Positions 17,025 through 60,393 of a stretch of DNA of 64,000 nucleotides are shown in pieces (within the stretch, counting starts at the first letter, position 1; each line of letters opens with the position of its first letter). The stretch is from an uncultured Rhodospirillales bacterium (GTDB lineage: Bacteria > Pseudomonadota > Alphaproteobacteria > Rhodospirillales > JAPHRK01). The position numbers and the translations under genes were made by a program. The notes below the pieces were generated by a model that did not search any database, was not told where the DNA came from, and was given only the letters and a program-made list of their open reading frames with translations. The stretch is taken from contig CBDUMN010000003.1 of the NCBI GenBank assembly GCA_965368335.1, positions 1,586 through 65,585 on the forward strand. Reading direction: 5' to 3'.

Positions 17025-17059
17025 AAAAGGGCGAAACAAATGAGGAGAAGCCTCGCATT

Positions 17060-18616: not shown

Positions 18617-18626
18617 GAGGGGCTGA

Positions 18627-20233: not shown

Positions 20234-20234
20234 C

Positions 20235-22693: not shown

Positions 22694-22697
22694 GACA

Positions 22698-23624: not shown

Positions 23625-23635
23625 GAACCTGCCCA

Positions 23636-25853: not shown

Positions 25854-25861
25854 GCGAAACC

Positions 25862-26704: not shown

Positions 26705-26862
26705 ATATGAGAATCATTCACAAAACAATCGCTTTTTAAGCTTTTCTTGAGGGTTTTTGTGCCCATATAGAAGGCTGCGGTTTTTATCGGCACAAGCACA
26801 GCGCCGACAAGGAATAGGGCCTGGACAGAATATCCCGGCCATACGTGACCAGGAGTAACAGA

Positions 26863-28230: not shown

Positions 28231-28258
28231 GACGGCAATTTGCAGATCCATTAGAGAA

Positions 28259-30040
28259 ATGGAAATTCAACAAAAACTCCAGAACGGCCTGATGCTCCAC
28301 CGTAGCGGCGACAAGAAAGCTGCTGAAACGGCGTACCTCGATGTGATTTCTCAAGACCCTCTTCAGGTCGATGCGCTCCATCTACTTGCAGTATTGCGTC
28401 TTGAAGAAGGGCGGCAAGAAGATGCCCTAGAAAATATCGACAAGGCCCTACAAGTGGACCCGGAGTATCCTGCCGCACGGCTCAATCGGGCGAACATTCT
28501 CATGGCGCTTCATCGTCCTCACGAGGCCATAAGAGAGCTGCAGGAACTGAGCATCGCCAAACCGGATTTATTGGAAGTTTATATTAATCTGGGGAATGCC
28601 TTACTTTCCGTCAAAAAGTTTAACGCCGCCCTTATTGAGTTTGACAAGGCGCTCAAGGTTAACCCCAATCATCCAAATGCACGTATGGGATATGGGCTCG
28701 CCCAAGAAGGGCTGGAACACTATGCCGAAGCCGCCGAGGCGTTTAGGGGTGTCCTCAAACAAATACCCAATGAACCAACCGTGTTGGCGCGATTGGCAAG
28801 CGTCAACGGAGAAATGAGCAACCTAAACGAGGCCTTGCAGTATGCTCTTTCAGCCCTGGCCTTTAACACTAAATCGGCAGAAAATTATTATAACGTCGTT
28901 ATCTATGCTGGTGCGTTGGCCGAAAAAGGCGACCCAGCCGGACATCAAGCCCTTCAAAGCCTAGAGAACATCACCAAACCCGAAAGCCCCTTAACCAAGG
29001 CGGCTGAAAAACTCATGGTTTTCTATCAAGGACGGAAATCCCCTCAGGTAAAAATAATCAAGGCGTTAGGCGAAACATTTTCTGAGGAACAGCCAACCAC
29101 GCTTACGATTGAACAAGCCGAAGTGGTGAATGATCAATGGTACGTTATTAAGGATGATGTTCTTTACATAGACCCCCACGCTCATATCCGAGAAACGGAG
29201 CAGCAACCAACCGTGACCCTGCATCCTGGGGGAAAAGCGGTTTTATCCGAAGCCCCCCCTAAGCGCAGAAGCATTGATGAGCCGGTATTCCTCATGGGGG
29301 GATGTGGGAATTACTATCACTGGATTATCGATCATCTGCCAAATCTTATGGCGCTCGAGCAAGCGAATTTATCCAAACAACCACTTATTCTTCTTCATCA
29401 CGACCCATCACCAAATCAGCTGGAAGCTCTTACTTTGTTGGGTATCGACAAAGAAAGACTATGCTTCTTCTCCGACGCGGAAATTTTAGAATGCAGCCAA
29501 CTGTTGCTGCCTTATCTACCCGACAGGCGTCCCAACAAATGGGATGAAAAAAACTGGTGGTGGCAAACGACCGCAACACCCAAGGTTAGCGCATGGCTCA
29601 AAGAACGTTTTGCGCCAACACCAAAGACGGATGCCGCTGAAAAAATTTTTATAAGCCGGAGTACGGCAAAAACACGCCGTGTCGTTAACGAAGCGGAAAT
29701 AGCCAACTTAGCAAAAGCCGCGGGCTACAGGATTGTTGAGCCCGGCATGATGAGCTTTAAAGAACAAGTCTCCATTTTTTCCGCCGCTAAGAAAATTGTA
29801 GCCCCGCATGGTGCAGGATTAACAAACATGGTCTTTGCCCCCGATGGCGTTGAAGTAGTTGAGTTCGTCGGTGAGATTGCTCCTCCTGAATTCTTTGAGG
29901 CGTTGGCAAAAACAAAGAATGCCGCTTATCAGAGAGTAACCTGCAGGCTCAGCGATGGCTTTTCGTCATATCGAAAGCGAGACAACCGGTTCAATGACTT
30001 CATCATTGATCCTGAGGAAGCAAGAAGCGTTTTCACGTAG
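28259..30040 (+). CDS. TPR-repeat protein fused to a GT61/DUF563-type glycosyltransferase
   Basis: The N-terminal ~230 aa are TPR-like (AETAYLDVISQDPLQVDALHLLAVL...). The C-terminal half has GT61/DUF563 hallmarks GNYYHWIIDHLPNL and FISRSTAKTRRVVNEAEI...QVSIFSAAKKIVAPHGAGLTNMVF. Confidence 0.7.
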   Translation: MEIQQKLQNGLMLHRSGDKKAAETAYLDVISQDPLQVDALHLLAVLRLEEGRQEDALENIDKALQVDPEYPAARLNRANILMALHRPHEAIRELQELSIAKPDLLEVYINLGNALLSVKKFNAALIEFDKALKVNPNHPNARMGYGLAQEGLEHYAEAAEAFRGVLKQIPNEPTVLARLASVNGEMSNLNEALQYALSALAFNTKSAENYYNVVIYAGALAEKGDPAGHQALQSLENITKPESPLTKAAEKLMVFYQGRKSPQVKIIKALGETFSEEQPTTLTIEQAEVVNDQWYVIKDDVLYIDPHAHIRETEQQPTVTLHPGGKAVLSEAPPKRRSIDEPVFLMGGCGNYYHWIIDHLPNLMALEQANLSKQPLILLHHDPSPNQLEALTLLGIDKERLCFFSDAEILECSQLLLPYLPDRRPNKWDEKNWWWQTTATPKVSAWLKERFAPTPKTDAAEKIFISRSTAKTRRVVNEAEIANLAKAAGYRIVEPGMMSFKEQVSIFSAAKKIVAPHGAGLTNMVFAPDGVEVVEFVGEIAPPEFFEALAKTKNAAYQRVTCRLSDGFSSYRKRDNRFNDFIIDPEEARSVFT

Positions 30041-30087
30041 TCATGCTGGTTGCCCGGCAAGACACTTTATTAAGTAAGGAGAGCTCT

Positions 30088-31467
30088 ATGCCTCATTTGC
30101 TATCGGCCCCAACAACGGTGAATTTAGAACTCACGGAAATCTGCAATGTCAAATGCGATCATTGCTACAACTATTGGCGCGACGAAAGCATGGGCGAAAT
30201 CTCGCTTGATGGCGAAAGACTAGAGCGTGTCATTGACAACTTGGCGAAGGCTGGGGTTTTCCATGTCATCCTGAGCGGCGGGGAGCCAATGGCGAAATTC
30301 CCCTTGTTGCTGCAAGCCGTTGAGCGGTTGAATAGCCACGGGATGTCATTAAGCGTCAATAGCAATGTCATGCTGCTCACGCCGGAAAGAGCTTCCCAGC
30401 TTGTTGAAAGGGGCGTTGACCATATCCTGACCAGTTTGCCGTCACTCGATCCGGCGACCAATGATCGAATTATGAATAAAGTTGGAGCTTTCGAGAAAAT
30501 CGTAACAGGCATTACAAATGCGGTAGACGCAGGCATCCGCATCAGCGTCAACATGGTCATTACGAAGAAGAACTATCAAGACGTCTACAAAACCGCGAAA
30601 TTCGTAGCCAATCTAGGCGCACAACGTATTTTCATCACCCGTTCAGTGCCCCCGATATATACGGAAACAGTGTCCGACGACGAATACGACATGACGCCAG
30701 AGGAAGTTCGCTCGGCGCTCGACAGCGCCATCCAGGCGCGTGACGAGTTCGGCATCATGATCGGAACCCTGGTCAGCTACCCGCTTTGTTTCCTGAGCGA
30801 TTTAGAAAAATACAAAGACTTTGTCGGACGCGGTTGCCCGGCACAGCGCGGCGATCGGATGAGCATTAACGCCAATGGTGCGGTTCACGCCTGCGTCCAT
30901 GAAGAAGATGGTTACGGCAATATTCTGGAAAATGATATACGCGACATTTACCAAAACAGCATGCGCAAATGGCACGGAGGAAACCTCCACTACGATGGCT
31001 GCGAAGGGTGCGAATATATCGATGTTTGCGAATCTGGTTGTCGCATGAATGCACTGGGCCGCGAAGGCGCAATGAATCTTAAAGACCCACTGTATCAAGG
31101 ACCTACTCACTTCAAGCGCCATTTCAAGTTCGACCAAAACGACGACTCCATTACGCTGATCGAAGAGAATCAGGCATTCACGGTCCCTTCCCGGCTCAGA
31201 TTCCGGAAAGAAAACGATTTTTACTTGGTGAATATTCGATGGGGCAATTCGATCACCCTTGATAATGAAACGACCGAATTCCTGATAGCCCATCAGGAAA
31301 GCGGTGAAGCATTTACGCTAAATGACCTCGGAGAAACCAAAGCTAAGATTTTGCGCAATCTGTATTTCAAGGATGTCATTGAAACCAAGGACAGCCAGCC
31401 AACAGATAGCAACAAGGCGTTTCTCGGCCTCAGCCTTAATCCAGATGCACTAAAAACAGGGACCTAG
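30088..31467 (+). CDS. radical SAM / SPASM-domain enzyme
   Basis: AAGGAGAG RBS before ATG 30088. The CxxxCxxC motif is ICNVKCDHCYN. The C-terminal Cys-rich SPASM-like region is GCPAQRGDRMSINANGAVHACVHE...CEGCEYIDVCESGCRMN. Confidence 0.8.
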   Translation: MPHLLSAPTTVNLELTEICNVKCDHCYNYWRDESMGEISLDGERLERVIDNLAKAGVFHVILSGGEPMAKFPLLLQAVERLNSHGMSLSVNSNVMLLTPERASQLVERGVDHILTSLPSLDPATNDRIMNKVGAFEKIVTGITNAVDAGIRISVNMVITKKNYQDVYKTAKFVANLGAQRIFITRSVPPIYTETVSDDEYDMTPEEVRSALDSAIQARDEFGIMIGTLVSYPLCFLSDLEKYKDFVGRGCPAQRGDRMSINANGAVHACVHEEDGYGNILENDIRDIYQNSMRKWHGGNLHYDGCEGCEYIDVCESGCRMNALGREGAMNLKDPLYQGPTHFKRHFKFDQNDDSITLIEENQAFTVPSRLRFRKENDFYLVNIRWGNSITLDNETTEFLIAHQESGEAFTLNDLGETKAKILRNLYFKDVIETKDSQPTDSNKAFLGLSLNPDALKTGT

Positions 31468-31480: not shown

Positions 31481-31498
31481 CTAGGGTCAGAACCCTAG
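31481..31498. terminator. short hairpin between convergent operons
   Basis: CTAGGGT-CAGA-ACCCTAG lies between the radical SAM stop (31467) and the galE-like stop, which it overlaps. No obvious U-tract. Confidence 0.35.
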
Positions 31499-32472
31499 GA
31501 ACGGTTACCTTTTTCCAACCAGTCTGAGGCTGTTCGGATAATCGCTTCAAGGTCTGAGTTCGGGTGTCTAAAATTCAGCACGCGTTTGACCTTGTCTGGC
31601 TCGGCAATGAGACAAGCGGGGTCGCCAGGGCGGCGGGGCTTCACAACCGTTCTGACATTTTTACCCGTCACCTTTTCGACCGCGGCAATGACTTCCTTCA
31701 CGGAATGGCCAATGCCGGTGCCTAGATTGTAAGGAGAAAATTCCGGTGTATCTCGAAAACTTTCTAAAGCCGTGACATGGACGGTCGCCAGATCGCTTAC
31801 ATGCACATAATCGCGCACACAACTACCATCAGGCGTCGGATAATCATCACCATAAATTTCCACAACCGTGCCATTGATGGCCGCTTCGAGGATACGGGGG
31901 ATCAGGTGCGGCTCGGGATCATGAGCCTCCCCGACGTCTAAATCCGGGTCGGCCCCAGCAGCATTGAAATAGCGAAGCACAGCGGCTGAAATTCCCTCCG
32001 CCTTGACCATATCCTCAATGATCCGCTCACATGTCACCTTACTCATGCCATAAGGTGAAATTGGGTTGAGCGGCAGGCCCTCATCAATTGAGGTTGCGTT
32101 TTGGTCGCCAAAAATAGTGCAACTACTGGAAAAAACGATCTTCCGAACCCCAGTTTGCTGCATGGCTCGGGCCAATGAGATCATCCCCCCCACATTATTG
32201 TTATAGTAGAGCAAAGGCTGCTCGTTGGACTCTCCTACATAGGCAAATGAGGCGAAATGCATGACGCCTTCGACGCCATATTCGGTCATCACAGCCGCCA
32301 AACGCCCCTCATCGAGGATATCGCCTTCCTCTAACGGCCCCCAACGAACCGCCCAAGCATTTCCTCGGCACAGATTGTCATAGGTCACGGGCACATAACC
32401 GGCCGATGCAAGCGCTTTACAAGCATGGCTACCTATGTAGCCCGCGCCCCCGGTTACCAGGACCGACTTCAT
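31495..32472 (-). CDS. galE: UDP-glucose/UDP-hexose 4-epimerase (GalE family)
   Basis: VLVTGGAGYIGSHACKAL start, YGMSK YxxxK, and GalE-like motifs throughout (DYPTPDGSCVRDYVHVSDLA). Confidence 0.9.
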   Translation of the reverse strand: MKSVLVTGGAGYIGSHACKALASAGYVPVTYDNLCRGNAWAVRWGPLEEGDILDEGRLAAVMTEYGVEGVMHFASFAYVGESNEQPLLYYNNNVGGMISLARAMQQTGVRKIVFSSSCTIFGDQNATSIDEGLPLNPISPYGMSKVTCERIIEDMVKAEGISAAVLRYFNAAGADPDLDVGEAHDPEPHLIPRILEAAINGTVVEIYGDDYPTPDGSCVRDYVHVSDLATVHVTALESFRDTPEFSPYNLGTGIGHSVKEVIAAVEKVTGKNVRTVVKPRRPGDPACLIAEPDKVKRVLNFRHPNSDLEAIIRTASDWLEKGNRS

Positions 32473-33692
32473 TTTTCCGCCTTCCTTTTATCTGCAATAT
32501 CTTCAATAGCCTTCAAAATCGCCGCCTTTGCATCGCCCGGTCGAATAAAATAGTTTAATGGCTTGCCCCATCGATTCGCCTTGAAAACCCCCGTGTCCCG
32601 ATAGGTGGAGATCACCTCTTCCAATTCATCAAGCTCATCGACAACCCGCAATAAAGGGGATTTGATTTTTGGAAAACGATCAAAAAGCTTCGGCATCCGA
32701 TAAGTTACCACCGGCTTGCCATTGGCTAGAGCATTGAGAAACGTTGATGATGTCAACGTCACCACCATATCGACATTCTGATAGGTCTCATCAGTGATCA
32801 ACCGGGAGGAATCCAGGCGCATATATGCGCCAAAGTGATATTCCACATGGTTCCGTATTTCTTCGCTCTCTGACGGATGAAACTTATAGATGGGCGTGAA
32901 AGACGCCAAAGTCAGGATGAATGGCGGGTAGTGCTTTTGCCAATCCTGCATCCTCATTTTTCTTTGCCTGACAAAATTTTGGTCGGGATAAAAAACACTA
33001 AAGATTTCAGGATTTTCTCTTCTCTTAATTTTTGACGAAAACACCCGCTTATCAATCAGCAAAGAGCCGACGATATGGATGTTCTTCTTCGGCACACCGT
33101 AGAGCAAACGCATGGTTTCCTCCGCCGACTTGCCAAAGAGAAAAACGTAGTCGGGATGTGTTTTGCCAAAAGGCTGGGAGCGGTGAATTTGGTTTGCGAC
33201 AAAAAACTTCAAAGAATCGGGAAAATAGCCGAATAGAAGACAAAACCGACGGACAAGAGGATACCACCAGGGGGAAAACTCGGGCTGCGGCTCAAATCCA
33301 TGGAAACCATCCTGAACGGTCATGGTCTTCAGCCCTAACTCTCGCGCTATTCGTCCTAACGGAGCTGCTTTGAGGGTGCCATCATTAAAAGTCAGGAATA
33401 AATCACCATCCGCCATCAGCAAACGGGCTTTTTCACAAGCTAGGTCGATGCAGGCATCCAGATAGCTTTTTCGTATTCCTTTCGCTTTGAGAGCGGCGAC
33501 TGTTTCATCCAGCTTTTCATCCAACTCGACAAAAGTTACGCCAATCTCCCTCGCTTTATCGATCACCCCGCCAACATCGATCTTGGGGGTGATAAAAAGG
33601 ACAAGCTCATACCCTTTGGCCTGAAACTCAGGAAGCAAAACGCCCAGGTGGGCAACCTGGTTACTTGCCTCGCAGTATGAATATATCTTCAT
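32469..33692 (-). CDS. hypothetical protein, possibly a GT-B-fold glycosyl- or glycerophospho-transferase-like enzyme
   Basis: 407-aa ORF coupled by ATGA to galE. Only weak resemblance was seen by eye (two Rossmann-like halves; KFHPSESEE; LTSSTFLNALANGKPVV). No firm motif. Confidence 0.3.
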   Translation of the reverse strand: MKIYSYCEASNQVAHLGVLLPEFQAKGYELVLFITPKIDVGGVIDKAREIGVTFVELDEKLDETVAALKAKGIRKSYLDACIDLACEKARLLMADGDLFLTFNDGTLKAAPLGRIARELGLKTMTVQDGFHGFEPQPEFSPWWYPLVRRFCLLFGYFPDSLKFFVANQIHRSQPFGKTHPDYVFLFGKSAEETMRLLYGVPKKNIHIVGSLLIDKRVFSSKIKRRENPEIFSVFYPDQNFVRQRKMRMQDWQKHYPPFILTLASFTPIYKFHPSESEEIRNHVEYHFGAYMRLDSSRLITDETYQNVDMVVTLTSSTFLNALANGKPVVTYRMPKLFDRFPKIKSPLLRVVDELDELEEVISTYRDTGVFKANRWGKPLNYFIRPGDAKAAILKAIEDIADKRKAEK

Positions 33693-33710: not shown

Positions 33711-34367
33711 CTATGGTTTGACTAAGTAGGAAATGGCATTGGAATAGGGGAGCTTCTCGACAATGATTTTCGTTTTTTCGAGAAATTCCTCAATCGCCTT
33801 GTTTGCTCCAGGAAAAGCGCCATAGTCATCCAAAATAACGATGCCCCCCCGAACCACATGATCAAATAAATTTTCCAGGCAAGCCTTGGTCGGCTCATAC
33901 AGATCCACATCAATATGCAGGAGAGAAATGCGAAGGGCTGGATTCTCCTCTAAAAAAGCCGGAAGCGTTTCGCGCAAATCTCCCGCAATAAGGTCAATGT
34001 TCGTATTGAGCCCCACCTTATCCAAACAGTTGCGCATATCTTCAATTGAGATACTCAGATCCCCCGCCTCAGAAACAAACCGTTGGCGCACCTCAACATC
34101 GGCCTCAAATTCAGCATCGGGAAATTTCCCAAAAGTATCAAACCCAATGATACGGCGACTTTTCGGATTCTCAAAAAGAGCTCGGAATTTAACCAGGCGA
34201 GAAAACGACGCCCCTTTAAAAACGCCACACTCAACGACTTCGCCCGGCAAATGACTGATCCGACGGTAAAGGTCCATATGGGTAGCAAACTTGCTAAAGC
34301 GTTCGACCGGGGCGGTTAAATAATATCCATTCTCGTAATCAAACTGTTTTTCAAAATCATAATCCAT
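33711..34367 (-). CDS. TylF/MycF-family (macrocin-type) sugar O-methyltransferase
   Basis: GEVVECGVFKGASFSRL SAM-binding motif and GGIVILDDYGAFPGANKAIEEF. The 218-aa size is typical. Confidence 0.75.
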   Translation of the reverse strand: MDYDFEKQFDYENGYYLTAPVERFSKFATHMDLYRRISHLPGEVVECGVFKGASFSRLVKFRALFENPKSRRIIGFDTFGKFPDAEFEADVEVRQRFVSEAGDLSISIEDMRNCLDKVGLNTNIDLIAGDLRETLPAFLEENPALRISLLHIDVDLYEPTKACLENLFDHVVRGGIVILDDYGAFPGANKAIEEFLEKTKIIVEKLPYSNAISYLVKP

Positions 34368-34421: not shown

Positions 34422-35639
34422 TCATGAAGATTTACTTTGATATTTCTCCATGACTGATCGATAGAGCGATGGCGTCAAACTAAGGGGGCGTTTCCCATCT
34501 AACTCCGCCTGAGCAATGTAAACAGCTAGTGAGGCTTCATGGCGCGCATAATACTCTTCATTGTCAGCCTGAACCAACCCGCCATGAGATCTTCCAATTG
34601 TGTCGTGCTCGGCCGCTCTATGCGAAGCCCACATGGCGCTTGCCCCCTTTTCACGGCCATCTAAACCGGCTAGCAGCAACATCCGCCCCAGACTACAGGC
34701 GACAGGGAATGCCACCGATGTTGTGACATTCCAAGCATCGACACAAACAAACTCTCGGGTGAGGTCTAGGTTAACGCGGGCGGGAGGGAACCCCTCAAAC
34801 CGAGTCGGCACCCCAACCATTTTTTGATGTAAATTTTTTGGCGTATCTTGAAGGAAGTACCGCAGGTACTGAATTTGCGTCACAAAAAGGCGATTTTCAC
34901 GACTTAAGAAATCAGCCAAAACTCTTCGATAATTGCCGCCGTATCGGGAAACTCCGCAGAAGTAAGGATCACCGATCACCGCAACAACCGGCCCCACATG
35001 GTTCAAAATATGCTCTTGTCCAATCAGCGTATTGGGCACCACCAAGGTGGTGTTGTGAAATTTACTTAAATCGATTGTTTCGCAGCTATGCCCTGGAGCG
35101 AGAAGTAAGCTGGCCTCAATCCCCTGTTCTTGAAGCTTTTTAATGAAATGGGAAAAATAAACACGCGACACCCCCTCTTCACGCTTTGCCGGAAAGACCT
35201 TGGCAAAAGTTTCGGGCAATTCCGCAGCCTCAAATACATTGGCTTCGGTATCAATAATGACTTTATGGACTTCCTTGCGCTTCACTGCGAGTTCCAACGC
35301 AGGATAACGTTTTAGGACCAATTCGGCGGCACTGTGATCAACACAAATGATCACTGCCGCTTCCTCTAACCGACCATCTTGATCGGCGACAAAATCAAAG
35401 ATTTCCCAATTGGCGTTCAGGGTATCTATGCAACAGGGATGGAAAGGTTCGGGACAATTCGCCAGAACCTTTTCTTTCAATCTCGGGGCCTCCAAGAGAC
35501 TTTGCGTTACCGGCACGGAAACTTTAAGCCCGGCGCCTGAAAACGGCGCGCAATACCAGGCCAAGCGGTGAAGCACTTCGGCCAATTTCTCTAAACTATC
35601 TAGCGCGGGAAGCACGGAAAGACGGATGGCTTTGCTCAT
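34422..35639 (-). CDS. hypothetical protein (405 aa) inside the nonulosonate operon
   Basis: Long ORF in an operon with short intergenic gaps. No recognisable catalytic motif by eye. The stretch LLLAPGHSCETIDLSKFHNTTLVVPN vaguely recalls the GxGPS region of MptE/Maf-like proteins. Confidence 0.5.
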   Translation of the reverse strand: MSKAIRLSVLPALDSLEKLAEVLHRLAWYCAPFSGAGLKVSVPVTQSLLEAPRLKEKVLANCPEPFHPCCIDTLNANWEIFDFVADQDGRLEEAAVIICVDHSAAELVLKRYPALELAVKRKEVHKVIIDTEANVFEAAELPETFAKVFPAKREEGVSRVYFSHFIKKLQEQGIEASLLLAPGHSCETIDLSKFHNTTLVVPNTLIGQEHILNHVGPVVAVIGDPYFCGVSRYGGNYRRVLADFLSRENRLFVTQIQYLRYFLQDTPKNLHQKMVGVPTRFEGFPPARVNLDLTREFVCVDAWNVTTSVAFPVACSLGRMLLLAGLDGREKGASAMWASHRAAEHDTIGRSHGGLVQADNEEYYARHEASLAVYIAQAELDGKRPLSLTPSLYRSVMEKYQSKSS

Positions 35640-35661: not shown

Positions 35662-37905
35662 TTAGAACCACTTTTCGAGCCGATTAAGCGCTATGGCGAA
35701 CCCTTCGCCACCGTTTTTATGTCCCTGCCAAATTTCGGGAATAAACGAAGCCGAGGAACAACACTTCTTCACCTGCTTTGCCAAGTGCTCAAAATCAATA
35801 TCTCCATCCCCGATCTGTAGTCCTTCATCATCGACCCCGCGAGCATCGACAAGATGCAAATGTTTTGAGTAAGGCCCTACGGTTTCAATAAATGAAGCAA
35901 ACGACCAGCCAAACTTTGTACAGGCCAATTTAGAATGAGAGGTATCCAAACAAATATTCGTTTCATATGTTTTGCAGAACCACTCGATTTCATCTGGGTC
36001 CATGAATAAGTTGTGGTAACGCTGCCCCCCCATTAACCAAGGAAACGGTGGCATGGTCTGAGGTAAAAGCTCGACCCCTTCGCTATCAACTCGCAAAAAC
36101 CCTTCTGCGACGCGCTCGTACATCTTGCGCCTGTCTGATTCAGGGATAAAACTCTTCTCTGAAAAGCCCCCAACATTGACAATAATGAACGGACGGTCGG
36201 CACGTTTAAAATAGGGCTTCAACGTCCGGGCCACATCGACAACATTTTGCAATTCACGAATGCCTCGCTCCCAAATTGCATTGTCGTCAGAGGCTAGATC
36301 GAGCAAATAATCACGAGCGAAAACCTCCGGGGAATGAACTACTAAATCCATATCCAGAGGCCCGTCCATATAACTTTCGACGGATATATCCATATCCTTG
36401 AAGCTCAGATGGAACTCCAACAAATCTGGTGCGATTTTCTCGAGAAACTGTTTGTAGTCATGGCATCGGACAGGCACGCCCCATGGATGCCTGAACTTAT
36501 AATCATGAAAAACGTTTTGTTCGCCAATGACATCTGCTTCAAAAAAGAAATCTCCAGCCTTGATATCCCGCGTCGCCAAGCTGCCGACCAACTCACTTCG
36601 CCGGTTGGGCTGGATACCGCGCCCCGGGTTCTTGATATCAATAATATCATCGGTGATGACATCACCCTTCGAAACATCACGAGTAGCAACGAGGCTTTTG
36701 GCGAGGATTTCGCGGTTCATCATTTCGCCCTGGCTTAAAACGCGGACAGGCTCACCAATGGAATCTTCAGTCTGCCGAATGGCCTCAACCATCTCCCGAA
36801 ACTCATCAGGCAATAAACTAATTCGATGGTCGTTGCCTTCTAGGGACCGGTCGACCGTAAAATGCTTCTCAACAATTTTTGCCCCTAGCGCAACCGCCGA
36901 AACAGCCACATGAATACCGCGTTCGTGTCCTGAATATCCCACCGGGCATTCACCGATTTCTTTCAAACGTTTTAGGTATGAAAGGTTGATGTCCTTGAAT
37001 GGTGGCGGGTATGCGGAATTGCAATGAAGCAAGGCAAACTGAGCCCCCTGCCTTTGCAGAAGTTTCACGGCATCCTTGATTTCCTGCTCATTCGACATGC
37101 CGGTCGAGACGATCATTGGTTTTTTAGTAGCGGCGACCGCCGCCAAGAGCTCATGGTTTGTCAGATCTGCGGATGCAATTTTATATGCTTGAACCCCCAT
37201 GCCCTCTAAAGCTTGCAAACTTTCCAAATCCCAGGGCGTACAAAGCGGGATAGCCCCACAACGACGGACATAATTCAGCGCCTCAGCCATTTCCTCGTTG
37301 GAAAGCTGGAACCGTGACAACAGGTCAAGCACATATTGCGACCCCAAATCTTCACTTGGGTCATTCGCAGCATCGGCATTGCGATAGAGGCTATCCATAT
37401 GGCGGAGCTGAAATTTAACGCAATCAGCTCCCGCATCGACGGCAAGGTCGATCAGTTCCTTCGCACGTTTCAAGCTGCCATTATGGTTGTTGCCGATTTC
37501 AGCAATAATAAATGCCTTGGAATCATCGGAAATCTCACGCCCTTCAATATTCATGAAGGATGCTTCATCAAAAGCAATCGCGACGAAATGCCCCATTTCA
37601 TTGACCAGGGGGACAAAGTGGATTTTGCTATCTAGTAGATTTCTAATGACCTCGGGGTCCTCATCAACCCCAGCCACAGTGATTTCCTTGGTCATTAAAT
37701 CTGCGACAGAGCGGTTGATATCAACCTGGTCTTCATTCACCACCCAACGCCTAAAATCGCCGTCGGTAAAAACCCCTTCGATGGTCCCTCTCTCCGTTAC
37801 GGCGCAAACAAAACCCTTCTTGTTCTGGCTCATCTTGATGAGAGCTTCCAAAACCGTTGCATGAGCAAGCAACACGAAAGATTCGACATTTGATTGGATA
37901 ATCAT
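35662..37905 (-). CDS. four-module fusion: CBS pair, NeuB-type nonulosonate synthase, SAF domain and xylose-isomerase-like TIM barrel
   Basis: Residues 1-~115 are CBS-like (GFVCAVTERGTIEGVFTDGDFRRWV). From ~130 comes the NeuB signature AFIIAEIGNNHNGSLKRAKELIDLAVDAGADCVKFQ. The SAF domain is LVATRDVSKGDVITDDIIDIKNPGRGI. The last ~280 aa are sugar-phosphate isomerase/epimerase (AP-endonuclease-2 TIM)-like (HLHLVDARGVDDEGLQIGDGDIDFEHLA). Confidence 0.85.
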   Translation of the reverse strand: MIIQSNVESFVLLAHATVLEALIKMSQNKKGFVCAVTERGTIEGVFTDGDFRRWVVNEDQVDINRSVADLMTKEITVAGVDEDPEVIRNLLDSKIHFVPLVNEMGHFVAIAFDEASFMNIEGREISDDSKAFIIAEIGNNHNGSLKRAKELIDLAVDAGADCVKFQLRHMDSLYRNADAANDPSEDLGSQYVLDLLSRFQLSNEEMAEALNYVRRCGAIPLCTPWDLESLQALEGMGVQAYKIASADLTNHELLAAVAATKKPMIVSTGMSNEQEIKDAVKLLQRQGAQFALLHCNSAYPPPFKDINLSYLKRLKEIGECPVGYSGHERGIHVAVSAVALGAKIVEKHFTVDRSLEGNDHRISLLPDEFREMVEAIRQTEDSIGEPVRVLSQGEMMNREILAKSLVATRDVSKGDVITDDIIDIKNPGRGIQPNRRSELVGSLATRDIKAGDFFFEADVIGEQNVFHDYKFRHPWGVPVRCHDYKQFLEKIAPDLLEFHLSFKDMDISVESYMDGPLDMDLVVHSPEVFARDYLLDLASDDNAIWERGIRELQNVVDVARTLKPYFKRADRPFIIVNVGGFSEKSFIPESDRRKMYERVAEGFLRVDSEGVELLPQTMPPFPWLMGGQRYHNLFMDPDEIEWFCKTYETNICLDTSHSKLACTKFGWSFASFIETVGPYSKHLHLVDARGVDDEGLQIGDGDIDFEHLAKQVKKCCSSASFIPEIWQGHKNGGEGFAIALNRLEKWF

Positions 37906-40129: not shown

Positions 40130-41368
40130 TTAGGCTGGTTGTAAGGACGTTTTTTCTTCTTCTGTTTGAAGGATATGGCTAGCAAAGCTGGTGAAAACGT
40201 AATCTAGTTGGGCATCGAGCATGAGATGCCGATAGACAGGCTCGAAAATATCATCGGCCAAAATAACGAAATTTGGTTTTCTTTCGCGGAGGCAGCGGTC
40301 AATCTCACTCCGACTGAACCCGCCGTCACTCCCACGTTCACGGATAATCGCCATTCCCTCGACAGAGACGTCGTTTCTCTTCAATAGGCGCATAATAGGG
40401 TGGGCCCATTCAGGACTCGAAATAACCAGAGCCCGATCCTTTTCGGTCTTGCCGTTGCGTAAAAAATTTAGATCATTCTCCACGGCTTTCTCAATCTGGT
40501 TTTTCCGGTCCACCTCAAGGTTTGCCAAAATTTGCTTCCGATCCGCCTCACAAGCCTCCTTATACTCGGGCGCAAAACCGCCAATTTCTTCCCGAGTGAA
40601 CAGGAATTTAGCTCTAAGAGTTTGTTTGTTTACATTTATGGAGTGGGCATGGATGAACCCATGGTAGGCCATAATCTCACGCCAACCATCCAGCTGCAGC
40701 CATATTGAATGATCGGCGCCCATGCCTGAGCGCGGATGCCGATATTTCTTATTATCATCGATTTCTTCGATTTTAGCTGGCTCGCGATACCAAAAGGTTT
40801 TTAGATTATGACCGTTGAATGTCACATCCTGTCTCGGCACAACAACGCTGGCGAAATTCGATGAGGCAAGCTCATCTTCGGTGTCAGGAGCAAAGTGGGA
40901 ATCTATATAGATCGCCGTAGAGGTATTCCGTCCAAGCGCATCAAGAAAACCAATCGGGTCTGTAAGGTGATAGAGAATTCCAGCGGCAAAGGCGCCGTCC
41001 GCTTTTGGGATTGCACTAAAATCGAGAATATTTGCGGTCTGAATACTGACCCGATCCATCCCCAGAATTTCAGCAAGAAAGCGGCCTCTACGGGCCGAAT
41101 GATCCCGCCCTTCAAGTCCAATGACTCTATCGCCATCACGTCCCAAATTAAGGCACGTCACACCCTCATTGCAGCCCAGATCCATAAAGGTTATAGCGGC
41201 ATCCGGCCCCATCAATTTTCGAGTGTAGAAACGCAAAATGGTTTCCCGCCGATTGCTATTGAAGTCTTTCTCCAATGCCATATCGGGATAGATTGACCCA
41301 TCCGGCAATTGGATCGCCTCAACTGAGTTTGAGGGACCAAGCCTGTATTTTTCGTCATATTCTACCAA
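40130..41368 (-). CDS. class I SAM-dependent methyltransferase with an uncharacterised C-terminal domain
   Basis: Motif I is FMDLGCNEGVTCLNLG, followed by GILYHLTDPIGFL. A ~180-aa C-terminal extension has unknown function. Confidence 0.65.
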   Translation of the reverse strand: MVEYDEKYRLGPSNSVEAIQLPDGSIYPDMALEKDFNSNRRETILRFYTRKLMGPDAAITFMDLGCNEGVTCLNLGRDGDRVIGLEGRDHSARRGRFLAEILGMDRVSIQTANILDFSAIPKADGAFAAGILYHLTDPIGFLDALGRNTSTAIYIDSHFAPDTEDELASSNFASVVVPRQDVTFNGHNLKTFWYREPAKIEEIDDNKKYRHPRSGMGADHSIWLQLDGWREIMAYHGFIHAHSINVNKQTLRAKFLFTREEIGGFAPEYKEACEADRKQILANLEVDRKNQIEKAVENDLNFLRNGKTEKDRALVISSPEWAHPIMRLLKRNDVSVEGMAIIRERGSDGGFSRSEIDRCLRERKPNFVILADDIFEPVYRHLMLDAQLDYVFTSFASHILQTEEEKTSLQPA

Positions 41369-41438: not shown

Positions 41439-42956
41439 TTAGGCGGTTTCTTGATATTTTTCAGCATACTCTTCCTTAAGCTCACCCCAGATTCTGTCCC
41501 CTTCCGGGGTCAGGGCTTCCGCCCGCTCGATATCTTTCCAGCGCTCTTCCGGAAACTTTAGGTAGAGGTTGAAAGTTCGGGCCTTGCCGTGAATTTGCTC
41601 TCGTGTGAACTGAGGCATTTCAAGGATCGAGTCGTCTAAGTTGGGCGGAGCGAGAACATTCGGATCTTTCAGGAAACCGTGCATGATCGAAAGCTTACGC
41701 AGCGGTGTGCCAAAGAAGGGGGTGAAAATCGAGCAACTTGAGGTATGCGCCCCGAGCGCTCTATTCAGGCGCACCGTATCCATATGCAGTTCCGGCGTCT
41801 CTAGCGGAAAGCCAACGATATTGTTGCAGCCGTATTGGACGCCATATTTCTTGAGCATCTGAACGTTATCGATAGCCTTTTGATTGGAATATTTGCGGTT
41901 AATCACCTCGGCACGGAACTGTTCATTGCCGTGCTCCACTCCCATACCCAATCGGTCCAGCCCGACCGAAACCAGCTTCTGAAGCTTATATTCGTTTAGG
42001 GTTGTCGGATAAGACTGGGCAAAGAAGGGGGTGCGGAATTCAGCGTATGCCTCGCAAAACTCATCAATCTCGGCCTTCGAATAAGCAAGGAAATTGTCCG
42101 CCCAGAAAAACAGGTATTCCGCTTTCATCTCCTTAACAAAATACTCCACATCCTCCATGACGCGGGGAATGGATTTTTTACGGAAATAGCGCGCGCCAGT
42201 TTCAGCCTTATAGGTCTCATCCTGCAATGGCGAATTACAGAAGGTGCATTTCAAAGGACAACCGCGATGGGTCTCCACCGGAAACATCCGATAAACCTTG
42301 CCCGCCATGGCTCGATAAAAGCGAGTATCGTCGAAAACAGAGGCATCGAACCGCGGCAGATCATCCATTTCGACGGCGGCCTGGAGCTTACCCCGAATAA
42401 TGTTGCCATCTTTGTCCTTAACCCACATACCCGACAAATCGGATATATCTCTCCCCTGAACCAACCGCTCAACCAAGGGAACGATAACCGGCTCCCCCTC
42501 ACCGACGCATATAGCGTCAACCTCTGGGAAGTTAATGGCGACCTCCGGCGCATAAGTTGGGAACACTCCCCCCAAAATGTGGGGTTTGCCCAAATCACGA
42601 ACGGCGGCTAGAAGATCGCGTGTTAGCTGGGCGGTGCTCTCCAAAGCTGAAGCCAAGATCACGTCTGGGTTATAATCTCGAACCTCCTTGCGGAAAGCCT
42701 CATAGACGTTTCCGTAGGTGGCGAAAGTGATGCCGCGTCTCTTGAGTTCCTTCTCATAAGGCGAGACGATAAGATTTTCCTGCATTTTCCGGTCAAAATT
42801 CGAGAAGTCTTCCGACATATCAAAAAATGTCGTATCGAAAAACCGCATCTCGACGCCATGTTGCTTGAAAATCGAGCTGAACAACGCAACCACTGGCTGG
42901 ACCAGAGACATTTGGCGCGGATTGGGATTGATGAACATCACTTTGATATTGGCCAT
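41439..42956 (-). CDS. B12-binding-domain radical SAM enzyme (class B, methyltransferase-type)
   Basis: ATG 42956 with GAGGAG RBS. The N-terminal Rossmann-like cobalamin-binding region is IKVMFINPNP...DVILASAL. The radical SAM motif is HRGCPLKCTFCNS. Confidence 0.85.
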   Translation of the reverse strand: MANIKVMFINPNPRQMSLVQPVVALFSSIFKQHGVEMRFFDTTFFDMSEDFSNFDRKMQENLIVSPYEKELKRRGITFATYGNVYEAFRKEVRDYNPDVILASALESTAQLTRDLLAAVRDLGKPHILGGVFPTYAPEVAINFPEVDAICVGEGEPVIVPLVERLVQGRDISDLSGMWVKDKDGNIIRGKLQAAVEMDDLPRFDASVFDDTRFYRAMAGKVYRMFPVETHRGCPLKCTFCNSPLQDETYKAETGARYFRKKSIPRVMEDVEYFVKEMKAEYLFFWADNFLAYSKAEIDEFCEAYAEFRTPFFAQSYPTTLNEYKLQKLVSVGLDRLGMGVEHGNEQFRAEVINRKYSNQKAIDNVQMLKKYGVQYGCNNIVGFPLETPELHMDTVRLNRALGAHTSSCSIFTPFFGTPLRKLSIMHGFLKDPNVLAPPNLDDSILEMPQFTREQIHGKARTFNLYLKFPEERWKDIERAEALTPEGDRIWGELKEEYAEKYQETA

Positions 42957-43181
42957 AGGATTCTCCTCATTAGCCAGTTTCAAGGCTATCGACCGACCGT
43001 CAGTCATCCTTCTGGATATGAACCAGCCTTGAATCTTATGTTCCGGTATATGGTAAACCTAAAAATAGATATCAAGGCGGCGACAACGGAGTTGGCCGAT
43101 AGCTAGCGCCTGGCGGCCACCGCCGATCCAGACAAGCACAGAGTAGCTTAGCGACTCATTCTTGAGAGAATCTTAAAAGGC

Positions 43182-44072
43182 CTACTTACCGTTTTTTAGC
43201 CCATCGATCATGTAGACTAAAATATACCTTTCATGCCCCTGTTCCTGATACCACCCCCGGTGGGCTCCGGCCTGATCGGAGAGTATTAAGGCACCCTTTT
43301 TGGCCAACGCATGAACCCTTCTTGCACGGTTAAAAAACTCATAGAAGGCATAGATACAGCCCGTACGATCGCCAATTTTCTTATTGATGGCACGCAGCTT
43401 TTCTTCCTTGTGAGTCCCTAGAGCATAGGAGTAGGGGCCATCGTCGACGGTCTCCACGTCGGTTAGGTAGACGAAGGCTTTTAACCCTCCATAGGCCCGG
43501 TCGTAATGCCACCCGGCGCAATCGCCCATCGAGCGACGCAAATAAAGATTGGGATTATCAAAACACCACTCCCGATCATCATAACCACTAATGATCGCCG
43601 GAATGAAAGAGCCGGGGCCATGCTCTTCTACAATTTCCTTACTTTCTTCGGACAACAACCGATGGACATTAAAAATATCGATAAATCCAACATCAGGCAC
43701 AGCCCGTACGTTAATGCCGGCAACACCTTCCTTGTCCCGCATTTCGGCATACCCCGGCGCAATGTTTTTTGGCGAGATAAACACACGTTCATCGGAAAAT
43801 TCTTTATCGCCGTTAATGGGCTCGTCGTACTCCGCAAGCGCCGTATCGACTTCCTCCCTGAGTTTGGCGACCTTATCCTCTGTCATAAAATTTTCTACGA
43901 CGACAAAGCCATGGTCCAAAAAAGCCTGTTTGATGCCCATGAAGAACCCATTTTCAGCACGCCTCTCCCAATCGTAAACATAAGGCGTATCCTTTAACGG
44001 CTCACAACCCGCCATCTCCTCAAAGGCGATATCCATCACTTCAAAAAGATCGTCGGTTGAAAGGGTTCTCAT
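43182..44072 (-). CDS. Fe(II)/2-oxoglutarate-dependent oxygenase, phytanoyl-CoA dioxygenase (PhyH)-like
   Basis: FLDHGFVVVENF start pattern, HxD in GWHYDRA, and a distal His in GAHRGW. ATGA overlap with the upstream methyltransferase gene. Confidence 0.5.
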   Translation of the reverse strand: MRTLSTDDLFEVMDIAFEEMAGCEPLKDTPYVYDWERRAENGFFMGIKQAFLDHGFVVVENFMTEDKVAKLREEVDTALAEYDEPINGDKEFSDERVFISPKNIAPGYAEMRDKEGVAGINVRAVPDVGFIDIFNVHRLLSEESKEIVEEHGPGSFIPAIISGYDDREWCFDNPNLYLRRSMGDCAGWHYDRAYGGLKAFVYLTDVETVDDGPYSYALGTHKEEKLRAINKKIGDRTGCIYAFYEFFNRARRVHALAKKGALILSDQAGAHRGWYQEQGHERYILVYMIDGLKNGK

Positions 44073-45841
44073 TCCTCTTTCCCTCTTGCTTGATTATTTT
44101 TAACAAGGATTTGGTCACGCCGTTGTTTGAATTTCTCAATATCACCGCCCGTCGGCTTTGGAATCTCGGGAACCGTACCGGGGACCGGAGCCGTTTGCCG
44201 CTTTTTCGAAACCAAAAGGCTGGTAATTCCAACCCCCCCAATACTTTCGCCAGGGATGTTTTTTTGCTGGATAAAATTATGGCGGCGGAAGCCATGGGTA
44301 GTTGCCGCCTCTTCAATAAGCCAGGAAACGAAACCGTCTTCGCCCCCTTTAATCAAAACAATCGAAGCTTCTTCAATGGGGCCTTCCATTAGGTTACGCA
44401 CGATGGCTTCATCCGTGCCTCCCTCACCAAAAACCAGAACACTTGGCTGCTCGACAAGTCGAACTCCAGCCAAGTCCTGCTCCAGACACTCGATTTCAGA
44501 TCTACTTAAGAAATTGGAGAAGTGGCTCCAATAGCCATTTTTACTGGATTTTTTAAGGCCATACTCACCAGCCGGGGCAAGAAAAAGCCTGACCTTCTTG
44601 AGCAAATCCGGCCGCTCCGAAAGATACATCAGCAGCCAAGTGGCAATTTCGGGATTGGAGAGCACCGAATAGCAAAAACCGACATGCTGCGCCCACCAGA
44701 GAGTTTCTCTCCCATCCCCGTAAACCAATAAAGTATCGGTTGGCAAGAGATGCCGCCCTAACCAGTCAAGGGCGGGTAGCGCATGTTCCGGCACATCAAA
44801 GGCAACCCGATGGCGCTCTGAAGCAGAGAACCGATCAACAAGTGATTCCACCGGCTGGTTCAACTCACCCGGCTTGAATTTGCTCTTACCGCCAGTGGCG
44901 GCGTCTTTTTCTATTTTCTCAGCTTCATTGAGCCTCGCGTGAAGTTCAAAAACTTGGCGGCTCAACTTCTCAATCAATGGCTCGGCCATTTCCGGCAGGA
45001 ACGACATTGGCTCAACCAAAGGCACTCCCGGTTTGCGCTGGAAAAGCGAACGGATGTAAACCCCTTTACCAGTCGGGTCGTCAATGGCGGCAAAATCAAG
45101 CGCCACCCCTTTGCCTATCACGTCAGTAGCCGGGTTGCCATCCACCCGCAGCGCTTTCTCTTCCAGCCAATCGAAGTTACCGCAAAGGCTCGAAAGGGTT
45201 TTCGGTGAAAAGAAATTGATATGGCCGTGTCCATAGCGTCGTCCGCCAGGCTTCCGCCCAACCATTTCAACGACCTCTTCCTCATTAGGCACCTCGATAT
45301 AGAGATGCCCCCCCTCTTTAAGCAAAGGAGAAAGACGGGCAATCCAATATGAAGGAGGATAAACATGCTCTAACACATGCGATAACGTTACGAGATCGAA
45401 CGCACCATCCAGATCGCCCGAAAACAGGGTCTCACTTTCCAAACGACTGACACCGTTGATCCCATCAATCATCTTTTGGAGCTTCTTGTCCTCTTCGACA
45501 GCCGTGACTTCAGCCCCCACTTCTTTCAAAAAGAGAGAGAGAGTTCCATATCCGGCGCCGAAATCGAGCACCTTCAAGCCCGTGAGAGGGGCTCCATTCT
45601 TTTGAATGAAATCAGCCTGCTGCCTAGCCCGAAGGAGCATAAACTGCAGGCGTTGCGCCGTTCCTAGCTCATTTTGGGAAGAGCGATAATCGTCACTATA
45701 ATACCGGTTCAGAACAGCCCCGGAGACAAAAGATATTTGGATGAACCCACAATTATTACACTTGAGAAGGTCTGCACCAAAATCAGGATGTGGCCAAAGT
45801 GTCTGATGATTTGTTTCTCCACAAACTTCACATTGGCTCAT
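44069..45841 (-). CDS. zinc-ribbon / class I SAM methyltransferase with a large uncharacterised C-terminal half
   Basis: N-terminal CEVCG...CNNCGF Cys4 ribbon. Motif I is VLDFGAGYGTLSLFL, followed by LVTLSHVLEHV. The ~300-aa C-terminal region has unknown function. Confidence 0.7.
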   Translation of the reverse strand: MSQCEVCGETNHQTLWPHPDFGADLLKCNNCGFIQISFVSGAVLNRYYSDDYRSSQNELGTAQRLQFMLLRARQQADFIQKNGAPLTGLKVLDFGAGYGTLSLFLKEVGAEVTAVEEDKKLQKMIDGINGVSRLESETLFSGDLDGAFDLVTLSHVLEHVYPPSYWIARLSPLLKEGGHLYIEVPNEEEVVEMVGRKPGGRRYGHGHINFFSPKTLSSLCGNFDWLEEKALRVDGNPATDVIGKGVALDFAAIDDPTGKGVYIRSLFQRKPGVPLVEPMSFLPEMAEPLIEKLSRQVFELHARLNEAEKIEKDAATGGKSKFKPGELNQPVESLVDRFSASERHRVAFDVPEHALPALDWLGRHLLPTDTLLVYGDGRETLWWAQHVGFCYSVLSNPEIATWLLMYLSERPDLLKKVRLFLAPAGEYGLKKSSKNGYWSHFSNFLSRSEIECLEQDLAGVRLVEQPSVLVFGEGGTDEAIVRNLMEGPIEEASIVLIKGGEDGFVSWLIEEAATTHGFRRHNFIQQKNIPGESIGGVGITSLLVSKKRQTAPVPGTVPEIPKPTGGDIEKFKQRRDQILVKNNQARGKEE

Positions 45842-46013: not shown

Positions 46014-46694
46014 TTATAGATGACGCTGCTTCGCAGGGTTTCCATAAACAACGGCGCCCGACGGCACATCCTCAACCACCACAGCGCCACACCCAACGAC
46101 GGCACGGTCACCAAGCGCCAAACCCTGGCGGATAATTGCCCCAGCACCGACAAAGGCTAAACGGCCGACCGTTACACCACCAAGCAAGCAGGCCCGCGGC
46201 GCAATGTGCACATGGTCCCCAACCCGGCAATCATGTTCAACGACAGCCGCCGTATTGACGATGACGTTATCGCCGAGACAACTGTTGGCATTGATGACCG
46301 CACGCGGAAGCACCACCGTCCCCTCGCCTAACTTTGCAGATGGCGAAACGACCGCGGAATCATGAATGACCGTCAGAGGCGAAAGCCCCGCAGAGATCGC
46401 TTGGGCAAAAAGCTTTTCACGTTGTTGATTATCAATTCCGCCCCCGAGCCCCAACACAAACCAATGAAATCCATTGGCCACAGCGTCGCTTAGCACCTCG
46501 TCACCGCCAATGACAGGCAACCCATGGGCGGCGCCTTGAGCCTGGAGTTTTTTCTTTGAATCGAGAATGGCGGCTGTGCTCAGAAATTCCTTATGGGCAG
46601 AGCTTTGAAAAGCGTCCAGCACCACGCCTGCATGCCCACCACCACCAATGATGACCAGCCGCCCCTTGGAGACCTTGCCGCCGATATCGCCCAT
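46014..46694 (-). CDS. NeuD/PglD-family hexapeptide-repeat sugar N/O-acetyltransferase
   Basis: N-terminal Rossmann-like LVIIGGGGHAGVVLDAF. The C-terminal left-handed beta-helix repeats are VVSPSAKLGEGTVVLPRAVINANSCLGDNVIVNTAAVVEHDCRVGDHVHI. Confidence 0.85.
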   Translation of the reverse strand: MGDIGGKVSKGRLVIIGGGGHAGVVLDAFQSSAHKEFLSTAAILDSKKKLQAQGAAHGLPVIGGDEVLSDAVANGFHWFVLGLGGGIDNQQREKLFAQAISAGLSPLTVIHDSAVVSPSAKLGEGTVVLPRAVINANSCLGDNVIVNTAAVVEHDCRVGDHVHIAPRACLLGGVTVGRLAFVGAGAIIRQGLALGDRAVVGCGAVVVEDVPSGAVVYGNPAKQRHL

Positions 46695-60320: not shown

Positions 60321-60331
60321 GAACGACTTCC

Positions 60332-60371: not shown

Positions 60372-60393
60372 CCACTTTAAGAAAAGGAATGTC

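Follow-up and report, generated by a model that had tools for sequence, protein, structure and literature searches.

The 64,000-nucleotide stretch analysed here, called the window in what follows, belongs to contig CBDUMN010000003.1 of an uncultured Rhodospirillales bacterium. Its minus strand carries a gene for a 747-residue protein in which a CBS pair (Bateman module), the catalytic barrel of a NeuB-type nonulosonate synthase, a SAF (antifreeze-like) domain and a C-terminal xylose-isomerase-like TIM barrel follow one another in a single chain (Table 1). The open reading frame (ORF) begins with ATG, runs through 747 codons without an internal stop in the ORF listing and ends with the stop codon at 35662-35664. 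A gap of 41 bp separates its start from the stop of the gene upstream, which encodes a NeuA/PseF-like cytidine monophosphate (CMP)-nonulosonate synthetase, and 22 bp separate its end from the next start. A four-module NeuB fusion of this kind had been described in an earlier note made from the DNA letters alone, and the profile searches bear it out, as every module scores above its curated Pfam threshold and the hidden Markov models confirm the domain boundaries. NeuB (PF03102) spans residues 151-386 with 282 bits (E 3.9e-84, cut-off 22.1), AP_endonuc_2 (PF01261, 'xylose isomerase-like TIM barrel') spans 519-742 with 61.1 bits (E 2e-16, cut-off 31.1), CBS is found in two stretches with 33.6 bits (cut-off 24) and SAF (PF08666) at 403-459 with 33.1 bits (cut-off 21). 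The note was also right that typical NeuB enzymes are shorter, the characterised NeuB, PseI and SpsE chains having 349-385 residues. Like NeuB, PseI and LegI the fusion combines a NeuB barrel with SAF and retains all metal, phosphoenolpyruvate (PEP) and catalytic residues, but it has about 400 residues more.

The fusion is a real enzyme architecture and not an artefact. A search of 5.8 billion proteins gave more than 7,800 homologues, and the best 120 of them, mostly cyanobacterial, are all collinear, 747-763 residues long and 55-61 % identical at 100 % query coverage, one identical copy excepted. An assembly or frameshift error that joins separate genes, a danger the earlier note had pointed to, is ruled out by the collinear full-length homologues. 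All four modules are strongly conserved, with a mean column identity of 79 % in 13 family members. With one genome taken per species, relatives were found in no fewer than 579 species, and the best 80 of these matches are full-length proteins of about 747 residues that are 50-58 % identical to the window protein. These 80 span Cyanobacteria, Anaerolineae, Alpha-, Beta- and Gammaproteobacteria, Leptospira borgpetersenii, Rothia mucilaginosa and Bacillaceae, and they also include Verrucomicrobiota, cable bacteria and a lineage of the candidate phyla radiation (CPR).

PDB matches of the synthase core are PseI of Campylobacter jejuni (8H2C, E 5e-57) and NeuB of Neisseria meningitidis (NmNeuB; 1XUU, E 2e-52). 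The metal ligands H215 and H236 of NmNeuB correspond to H327 and H348, and its PEP-binding and catalytic residues E25, K53, Q55, K129, S132, S154, Y186, S213, E234 and D247 to E136, K164, Q166, K242, S245, S267, Y299, S325, E346 and D359. According to column counts over 76 diverse members, each position of this set is kept throughout or with only a few exceptions. Consistent departures from NmNeuB are the exchange of E134 for Asp and of N184 for Ser (as in PseI), and a change of R314. The R314 position lies in the SAF domain and is Asn426 in the window protein; in most of the 76 members it is Ser, in the others Thr, Gly, Pro or Ala, and it is never Arg. In the NmNeuB structure R314 contacts the N-acetyl (2-acetamido) group of N-acetylmannosamine (ManNAc). 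Since its equivalent is never Arg, sugar recognition in the family seems to differ from that of NeuB and PseI, and a pocket that recognises the 2-acetamido group as theirs does is not what one would expect. The NCBIfam scores are 334.4 bits for TIGR03569 (NeuB) and 251.9 bits for TIGR03586 (PseI), below the respective equivalog cut-offs of 399.65 and 340.25. The core is thereby predicted to be a nonulosonate synthase rather than a strict N-acetylneuraminate or pseudaminate synthase. The neighbouring cytidylyltransferase has PseF as its best NCBIfam match with 136 bits, which is below the cut-off of 205.7, and the KdsB models reach 47 bits at most. Because the PseF score is so far above KdsB, the product is expected to be a nine-carbon sugar, and a 3-deoxy-D-manno-octulosonate (Kdo)-type product is disfavoured.

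At the N-terminal end, residues 11-107 align across both CBS motifs with a KpsF-type arabinose-5-phosphate isomerase (PDB 4O9K, E 5.8e-10), and the CBS pairs of the GutQ/KpsF arabinose-5-phosphate isomerases are the best matches of this region both in NCBIfam and in PDB. The first CBS motif carries a single canonical ribose-phosphate motif, G-h-h-T-x-x-D, in the form G44-V-F-T-D-G-D50, and E38, G40, E43, G44, T47-D50 and R52-W54 do not vary among 13 family members. The nearest relative of the fusion's N-terminal module is the CBS pair that accompanies a SIS domain in KpsF, GutQ and KdsD. In both cases the CBS pair rides on the committing enzyme of a pathway in which a sugar is condensed with PEP to an ulosonic acid, but the catalytic domain is SIS in those isomerases and NeuB in the fusion. 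The CBS pairs of 4O9K and 3K2V were reportedly crystallised with CMP-Kdo, but literature searches on CMP-Kdo binding by KpsF CBS pairs gave no confirmation. The module is probably a nucleotide-dependent regulator, perhaps working through feedback by the end product, and ligand-gated synthesis, as the earlier note had suggested, is a reasonable expectation for a putative CBS ligand.

The C-terminal region, residues 465-747, was modelled alone with AlphaFold as an eight-stranded (beta/alpha)8 barrel with a predicted local distance difference test (pLDDT) of 83 and a predicted TM-score (pTM) of 0.87. The full-length model was poor (pTM 0.46, pLDDT of the CBS pair below 50), and the domain packing and the CBS fold are unreadable in it. 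Searched against 1.84 billion cluster representatives, the same residues gave only 821 matches at E <= 1e-3. In most of those listed, which are proteins of about 600-770 residues, the barrel follows a NeuB domain, and some of about 270-310 residues are perhaps stand-alone forms or fragments. The barrel thus seems largely dedicated to NeuB. Foldseek against PDB places ketose 3-epimerases and endonuclease IV side by side, with TM of about 0.6-0.67 and 12-19 % identity; D-psicose 3-epimerase is the top match, and endonuclease IV is found at E 8.5e-11 with TM 0.61-0.67. In hhalign comparisons with E. coli proteins the local probability is 93.8 % for UlaE, 91 % for SgbU, 71.7 % for the endonuclease IV Nfo (12.6 % in global mode) and 61 % for Hyi. 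The TIM-barrel similarity claimed in the earlier note is thus confirmed by profile matches to UlaE and SgbU. Xylose isomerase proper can be discarded, XylA having no profile similarity to the region (hhalign 0.2 %). The only clear sequence-level relative in PDB is MJ1311 (3WQO, E 2.7e-9), which is listed as a predicted endonuclease IV homologue of M. jannaschii (PMC2770678). Judged by these comparisons, the barrel would be roughly equidistant from the sugar-phosphate 3-epimerase and the endonuclease IV branches.

In 120 diverse barrel domains R480, E497, H499, D504, H524, D654, S656, H657, H684, D687, E694, E724 and H729 are invariant, each of them placed where a predicted strand ends on its C-terminal side or directly behind that point. 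The barrel shares with endonuclease IV the TIM-barrel fold and the motifs YLxxL, GQxxNL, DxxH, HLxD and D-x-(H/E)-xxx-G-x-G, and the nine Zn ligands of Nfo could be mapped on it by motif and predicted strand register. Six of them are identical in the window protein, namely H69 (H524), D179 (D654), H182 (H657), H216 (H684), E261 (E724) and D229 (D692, a position that is variable in the family), and H109, E145 and H231 are replaced by N577, Q616 and E694, so the full set of nine ligands is not present. This His-rich invariant set is suggestive of a multi-metal phosphoesterase more than of an epimerase. Unlike endonuclease IV, the barrel of the fusion is joined to a sugar synthase, and its setting is not one of DNA repair.

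UlaE, SgbU and the D-tagatose and D-psicose 3-epimerases (DTE/DPE) resemble the barrel in another way. They are its best profile and top Foldseek matches, and a strand with 'IPEIW' against 'LIEMW' and the HxxD strand can be aligned. In the UlaE alignment E155 corresponds to Q616, H211 to H684 and E251 to E724. The E-D-H-E site of the epimerases is therefore incomplete, with D654, H684 and E724 in place and Gln instead of the first Glu. UlaE E155 is both a metal ligand and the catalytic base, and since its equivalent is Gln616 an epimerase mechanism with two Glu residues is unlikely here. UlaE, for its part, has no counterpart of H499, H524, the His seen at position 577 in some members, H657 or H729. 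These observations bear on the possibility that the barrel is a sugar(-phosphate) isomerase, epimerase or dehydratase, which could either supply the aldose for NeuB, for instance by turning a ketose-phosphate into an aldose-phosphate, or remodel the nine-carbon product, for instance by C3 deprotonation and elimination of the 4-OH leading to 4-epimerisation. It has the Pfam assignment and the profile and fold matches on its side, three of the four canonical ligands are invariant, and a subfamily without the CBS pair keeps the fourth, E616. The Gln in the subfamily of the window protein, the invariant His residues that UlaE lacks, and the fact that C3 of a 3-deoxy-2-ulosonate is no stereocentre speak against it, and we consider it unlikely. 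The earlier note had proposed an epimerisation, dehydration or aldol-type extension on the enzyme. Of this the match to 3-epimerases stands, but the exchange of Glu for Gln616 and the endonuclease IV pattern of the invariant residues do not agree with it, and the extra chemistry amounts only to a reading of the Pfam name.

Positions 577, 616 and 617 co-vary perfectly in the 120 domains, with H/E/N in 33 and N, S or T/Q/T, S or N in 85, and no mixes (Fisher 1.6e-27, a value not corrected for phylogeny). The H/E/N state is confined to forms that lack the CBS pair, and E616 was seen only there; every form with a CBS pair has N/Q, and some without it have N/Q too. Domains in the H/E/N state have, with H524, the same Zn1 triad as endonuclease IV, and in the CBS-less subfamily seven ligand positions, this triad included, are identical to endonuclease IV. 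Covariation of 577 and 616 is what could be expected if both share one metal site with the invariant H524. It is also conceivable that the barrel has become non-catalytic in the CBS-containing subfamily and works as a structural, oligomerisation or ligand-sensing module, as the isosteric amides H577N and E616Q, present in every CBS-containing form, are typical of inactivated metal sites. This would leave unexplained that 13 other polar residues at or near the strand ends are invariant in 120 domains at 30-50 % identity, which fits a working site, and we regard a dead barrel as very improbable.

We tentatively, and with less than even confidence, read the window protein as a CBS-regulated synthase and phosphoesterase that makes a CMP-nonulosonate together with the adjacent cytidylyltransferase. 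The NeuB-SAF core would condense PEP with a hexose without amino-sugar tailoring, in the simplest case mannose-6-phosphate or ManNAc-6-phosphate, to a nonulosonate-9-phosphate. The barrel would act as a metal-dependent phosphoesterase from the endonuclease IV/UlaE branch of the xylose-isomerase-like superfamily and remove the 9-phosphate, after which the cytidylyltransferase would convert the free acid into the CMP-activated donor. The CBS pair would sense a nucleotide ligand, plausibly the CMP-sugar end product, and throttle the pathway. The donor may then feed flagellin glycosylation through the Maf and tetratricopeptide repeat (TPR) glycosyltransferases of the window, possibly after O-methylation. 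In this reading it is inferred that the substrate is phosphorylated and that the barrel is a phosphatase, and so are the ligand of the CBS pair and the sugar itself. A phosphatase is supported because the invariant residues of the barrel follow the Zn ligands of endonuclease IV and the epimerase base is lost. The covariation of 577 and 616, the match to MJ1311, the occurrence of the barrel mostly behind NeuB, the self-sufficient look of the gene pair and the proposal published for Leptospira (see below) are in line with the reading as well. Endonuclease IV itself removes 3'-phosphates from a sugar.

Several points weigh against a phosphatase barrel. The profile similarity is higher to UlaE and SgbU than to endonuclease IV, and Foldseek ranks both equally. 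Two of the Zn1 ligands are the amides N577 and Q616, so a trinuclear site cannot be intact. The mapping of the Nfo ligands is no three-dimensional superposition, hhalign puts E145 one residue off Q616, and the covariation may perhaps reflect a single ancestral split. A scan of NeuB and SAF for family-specific basic residues that could form a sugar-phosphate pocket gave no clear signal, yielding only R168 and R/K388 beyond the PEP-binding lysines, and K403, which is Arg in PseI. Flagellin, Maf and Leg-like contexts such as that of the window usually use 9-deoxy sugars, pseudaminic (Pse) and legionaminic (Leg) acid, which are unable to carry a 9-phosphate. We know of no sugar-phosphate phosphatase with this fold, and literature searches for the fusion, including by domain names, found no paper testing the activity of any family member.

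Phospho-sugar routes with two enzymes exist, in animals with NANS and NANP and in Bacteroides thetaiotaomicron with a 2-keto-3-deoxynononate (Kdn)-9-phosphate synthase and a Kdn-9-phosphate phosphatase. They share the logic proposed here, from PEP and a hexose-6-phosphate to a nonulosonate-9-phosphate, the free acid and the CMP-sugar, but the phosphatases of both are separate HAD-fold proteins, whereas the candidate phosphatase is a fused TIM barrel here. A more specific version, in which a phosphatase barrel derived from endonuclease IV and a CBS pair sensing the CMP-sugar form a two-gene route from PEP and mannose-6-phosphate or ManNAc-6-phosphate to a CMP-Kdn/Neu-type sugar, appears possible but rather doubtful. 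Such a route would be in use in hundreds of species, among them cyanobacteria, Rothia and pathogenic Leptospira, and the coupled change of His to Asn and of Glu to Gln would mark a remodelling of the metal centre.

The architecture has been known since 2012. Ricaldi et al. (2012) described in Leptospira interrogans a nonulosonate synthase fused to a putative phosphatase domain (YP_002104) and proposed that PEP and a phosphorylated hexose give a 9-phospho sugar which the fused domain dephosphorylates, an animal-like route, although the Leptospira enzyme did not cluster with the animal synthases (PMC3438082). The same proposal was repeated for LA_1613 (sas/neuB2) by Fouts et al. (2016) (PMC4758666). 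We draw the link to LA_1613 through a homologue in L. borgpetersenii and its gene order, and not through the sequence of LA_1613 itself. The L. borgpetersenii locus (L049) has a 753-codon homologue with 52 % identity over residues 1-746, and the sizes and order of the flanking ORFs match LA_1605-LA_1615; because of this full-length identity and matching gene order, the fusion is placed in the Leptospira sas/neuB2 family. In both, a NeuB domain is followed by an endonuclease-IV-like (PF01261) domain within one ORF, and the N-terminal 'transferase domain' that Fouts et al. assigned to the Leptospira protein appears to be the region of the CBS pair. The settings differ, the Leptospira gene being part of a lipopolysaccharide (LPS)/surface nonulosonate cluster with a complete Leg-type pathway and NeuC, and the window gene lying in a flagellin-glycosylation island with Maf enzymes. 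The main text of a Chem Sci survey of nonulosonic acids gives no species-level link. The window protein is thus a further member of a widespread, biochemically uncharacterised family.

The gene neighbourhood was compared in 80 related loci, 39 of which have at least 8 kb of flank on both sides. A NeuA/PseF-type cytidylyltransferase was observed in 58-59 of the 80, usually directly upstream and on the same strand, and in 35 of the 39 fully flanked loci, and it is the only conserved neighbour of the fusion. DegT aminotransferases occur in seven of the 39, a second NeuB in six and NeuC in one, and 19 have none of aminotransferase, 4,6-dehydratase, NeuC and second NeuB nearby. Because precursor genes are so often missing, the fusion and the cytidylyltransferase look self-sufficient, with the hexose coming from general metabolism. 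The 2,4-diacetamido-hexoses that the earlier note had named as candidate substrates are doubtful, since the Arg of the R314 type is absent and genes of an amino-sugar pathway are lacking around the fusion in half of the fully flanked loci. An isomerase that supplies the aldose would also explain the lack of other precursor genes, but mannose-6-phosphate is already made by most bacteria, and with a phosphorylated substrate the conserved gene set would still lack a phosphatase. Neither phosphatases nor kinases of any one family recur in the related loci.

Methyltransferases, GT2 glycosyltransferases and Wzm/Wzt transporters are common in the related loci, and TylF-like methyltransferases recur in 12-13 of them. 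In Acaryochloris and Pseudalkalibacillus the fusion and cytidylyltransferase form a pair inside polysaccharide clusters, and in Rippkaea the fusion gene stands alone. In one locus from an uncultured genome (L087, 5828-8707) a class I methyltransferase is fused ahead of NeuB-SAF-barrel in a protein of 959 residues (P0292). This fusion and the recurring methyltransferases hint that the sugar is commonly O-methylated. The CBS-less forms in L087 and in a metagenome-assembled genome of Chloroflexota (L086) are found beside an adh_short short-chain dehydrogenase/reductase (SDR), a GFO/IDH/MocA oxidoreductase and a cytidylyltransferase, an arrangement that recalls PtmA, PtmF and PtmB of Campylobacter, and L086 also has sulfotransferase and ATP-sulfurylase/APS-kinase genes nearby. 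PtmA- and PtmF-like oxidoreductases were rejected as partners of the family, as they occur in only 2 and 12 of 62 four-module loci and are absent from the window.

Flagella, capsules and LPS can all bear nonulosonic acids, which shape host recognition, and the carriers of the fusion family include pathogenic Leptospira, Rothia from the mouth and many cyanobacteria that form blooms or fix nitrogen. A phosphatase barrel would mean an animal-like phospho-sugar route in one polypeptide and a new activity for the fold, whereas with an isomerase or epimerase barrel the product of the family may be a sugar isomer not yet described. In both cases a CMP-activated nine-carbon sugar may need no more than two genes, which could be useful for glyco-engineering. 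For the window alone the finding is ordinary, one more member of a family flagged in 2012.

The fusion is followed by four genes on the same strand, with intergenic gaps of 22, 54, 18 and -4 bp (Table 1). Two of them encode proteins of 405 and 407 residues that had no family or structure match in Pfam, NCBIfam and PDB and no homologue in the 80 related loci. For the 407-residue protein there is one very faint exception, a model named 'surface carbohydrate biosynthesis protein' at E 0.009. Both could be lineage-specific transferases or modifying enzymes.

Table 1. Positions of the fusion gene, its modules and other features in the window
Feature	Position	Strand	Basis or remark
Whole gene, 747-residue CBS-NeuB-SAF-TIM barrel fusion	35662..37905	-	ORF listing; Pfam and NCBIfam; full-length collinear homologues
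CBS pair (Bateman module)	37576..37875	-	About residues 11-110; Pfam CBS, two stretches
NeuB nonulosonate synthase catalytic barrel	36748..37515	-	About residues 131-386; PF03102
SAF (antifreeze-like) domain	36529..36699	-	Residues 403-459; PF08666
C-terminal xylose-isomerase-like TIM barrel	35665..36498	-	About residues 470-747; PF01261
Covarying residues N577, Q616, T617	~36055-36177	-	
NeuA/PseF-like CMP-nonulosonate synthetase, 242 residues	37947..38675	-	PF02348; 41 bp upstream of the fusion
405-residue protein	34422-35639	-	Downstream operon gene
TylF-type O-methyltransferase	33711-34367	-	Downstream operon gene
407-residue protein	32469-33692	-	Downstream operon gene
SDR epimerase/dehydratase	31495-32472	-	Downstream operon gene
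Two tandem Maf-type flagellin glycosyltransferases	53564-55546, 55521-57515	-	Maf_flag10_N and MptE-like domains
TPR-glycosyltransferase, GT61	28259-30040	+	
TPR-glycosyltransferase, GT41	50358-52280	-	
TPR-glycosyltransferase, GT41-like	57556-59490	-	
LegB-like 4,6-dehydratase	62596-63651	-	
LegC-like aminotransferase	61452-62651	-	
PglD/LegH-like acetyltransferase	46014-46694	-	
Island	16000-63700		About 47 kb
flgE-like, flgI, flgK	6431-12200		Flagellar genes bracketing the island
Flagellin, FlbT, FlaF	59498-61311		Flagellar genes bracketing the island
Operon with HldE-like and GmhA-like genes	16014-31467	+	
B12-binding radical-SAM enzyme, PhyH-type dioxygenase, two large methyltransferases	41439-43007, 43182-44072, 40130-41368, 44069-45841	-	Adjoin the nonulosonate operon
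PAS histidine kinase with C-terminal hemerythrin domain	13730-15826	-	

The operon is part of an island of low GC content (0.47-0.50, against 0.55-0.60 around it) that is bracketed by flagellar genes and contains two Maf-type and three TPR-glycosyltransferases, three radical-SAM enzymes, a heptose-type module and several methyltransferases; it is a flagellin-glycosylation island, and FlbT and FlaF suggest that the host is an alphaproteobacterium. The Maf transferases are likely to use a CMP-nonulosonate in this organism, and the TPR-glycosyltransferases recall the FlmG flagellin glycosyltransferases. With several transferases present, the glycan on the flagellin may well be complex or heterogeneous.

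The fusion is the only NeuB-type gene within the window, and neither NeuC/LegG, PseG nor a second NeuB was found in its 64 kb. As LegB-, LegC- and LegH-like enzymes and Maf are present, the barrel could instead be a phosphodiesterase that frees the hexose from a nucleotide sugar and so replaces the NeuC/LegG/PseG step before the condensation, for instance by splitting GDP/UDP-2,4-diacetamido-6-deoxyhexose or GDP-mannose into free sugar and NDP. The endonuclease-IV-like invariant pattern and the rarity of NeuC in the fully flanked loci would agree with this. The activity would, however, be unprecedented for the fold, a Leg-type pathway also needs a C2 epimerisation, and the missing N-acetyl-binding Arg and the many loci without amino-sugar genes count against it as well. 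Furthermore, the dehydratase operon at the right edge continues past position 64000, and LegG and LegI could sit just outside. We find such a hydrolase improbable.

Other parts of the island seem to serve further sugars or modifications. The products of a plus-strand operon at 16014-31467 are an HldE-like kinase/adenylyltransferase, a GmhA-like SIS protein, a kinase of the APH family, a split transketolase, two DegT aminotransferases, RmlD and two radical-SAM enzymes, one of the SPASM type and the other with FeS_assembly_P as its N-terminal domain. Together they look like a pathway to a sugar that is heavily tailored and possibly derived from a heptose. For the B12-binding radical-SAM enzyme, the PhyH-type dioxygenase and the two large methyltransferases that adjoin the nonulosonate operon, a role in tailoring by C-methylation or hydroxylation is possible. 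Between the first flagellar genes and the island lies the gene for a PAS histidine kinase with a C-terminal hemerythrin domain.

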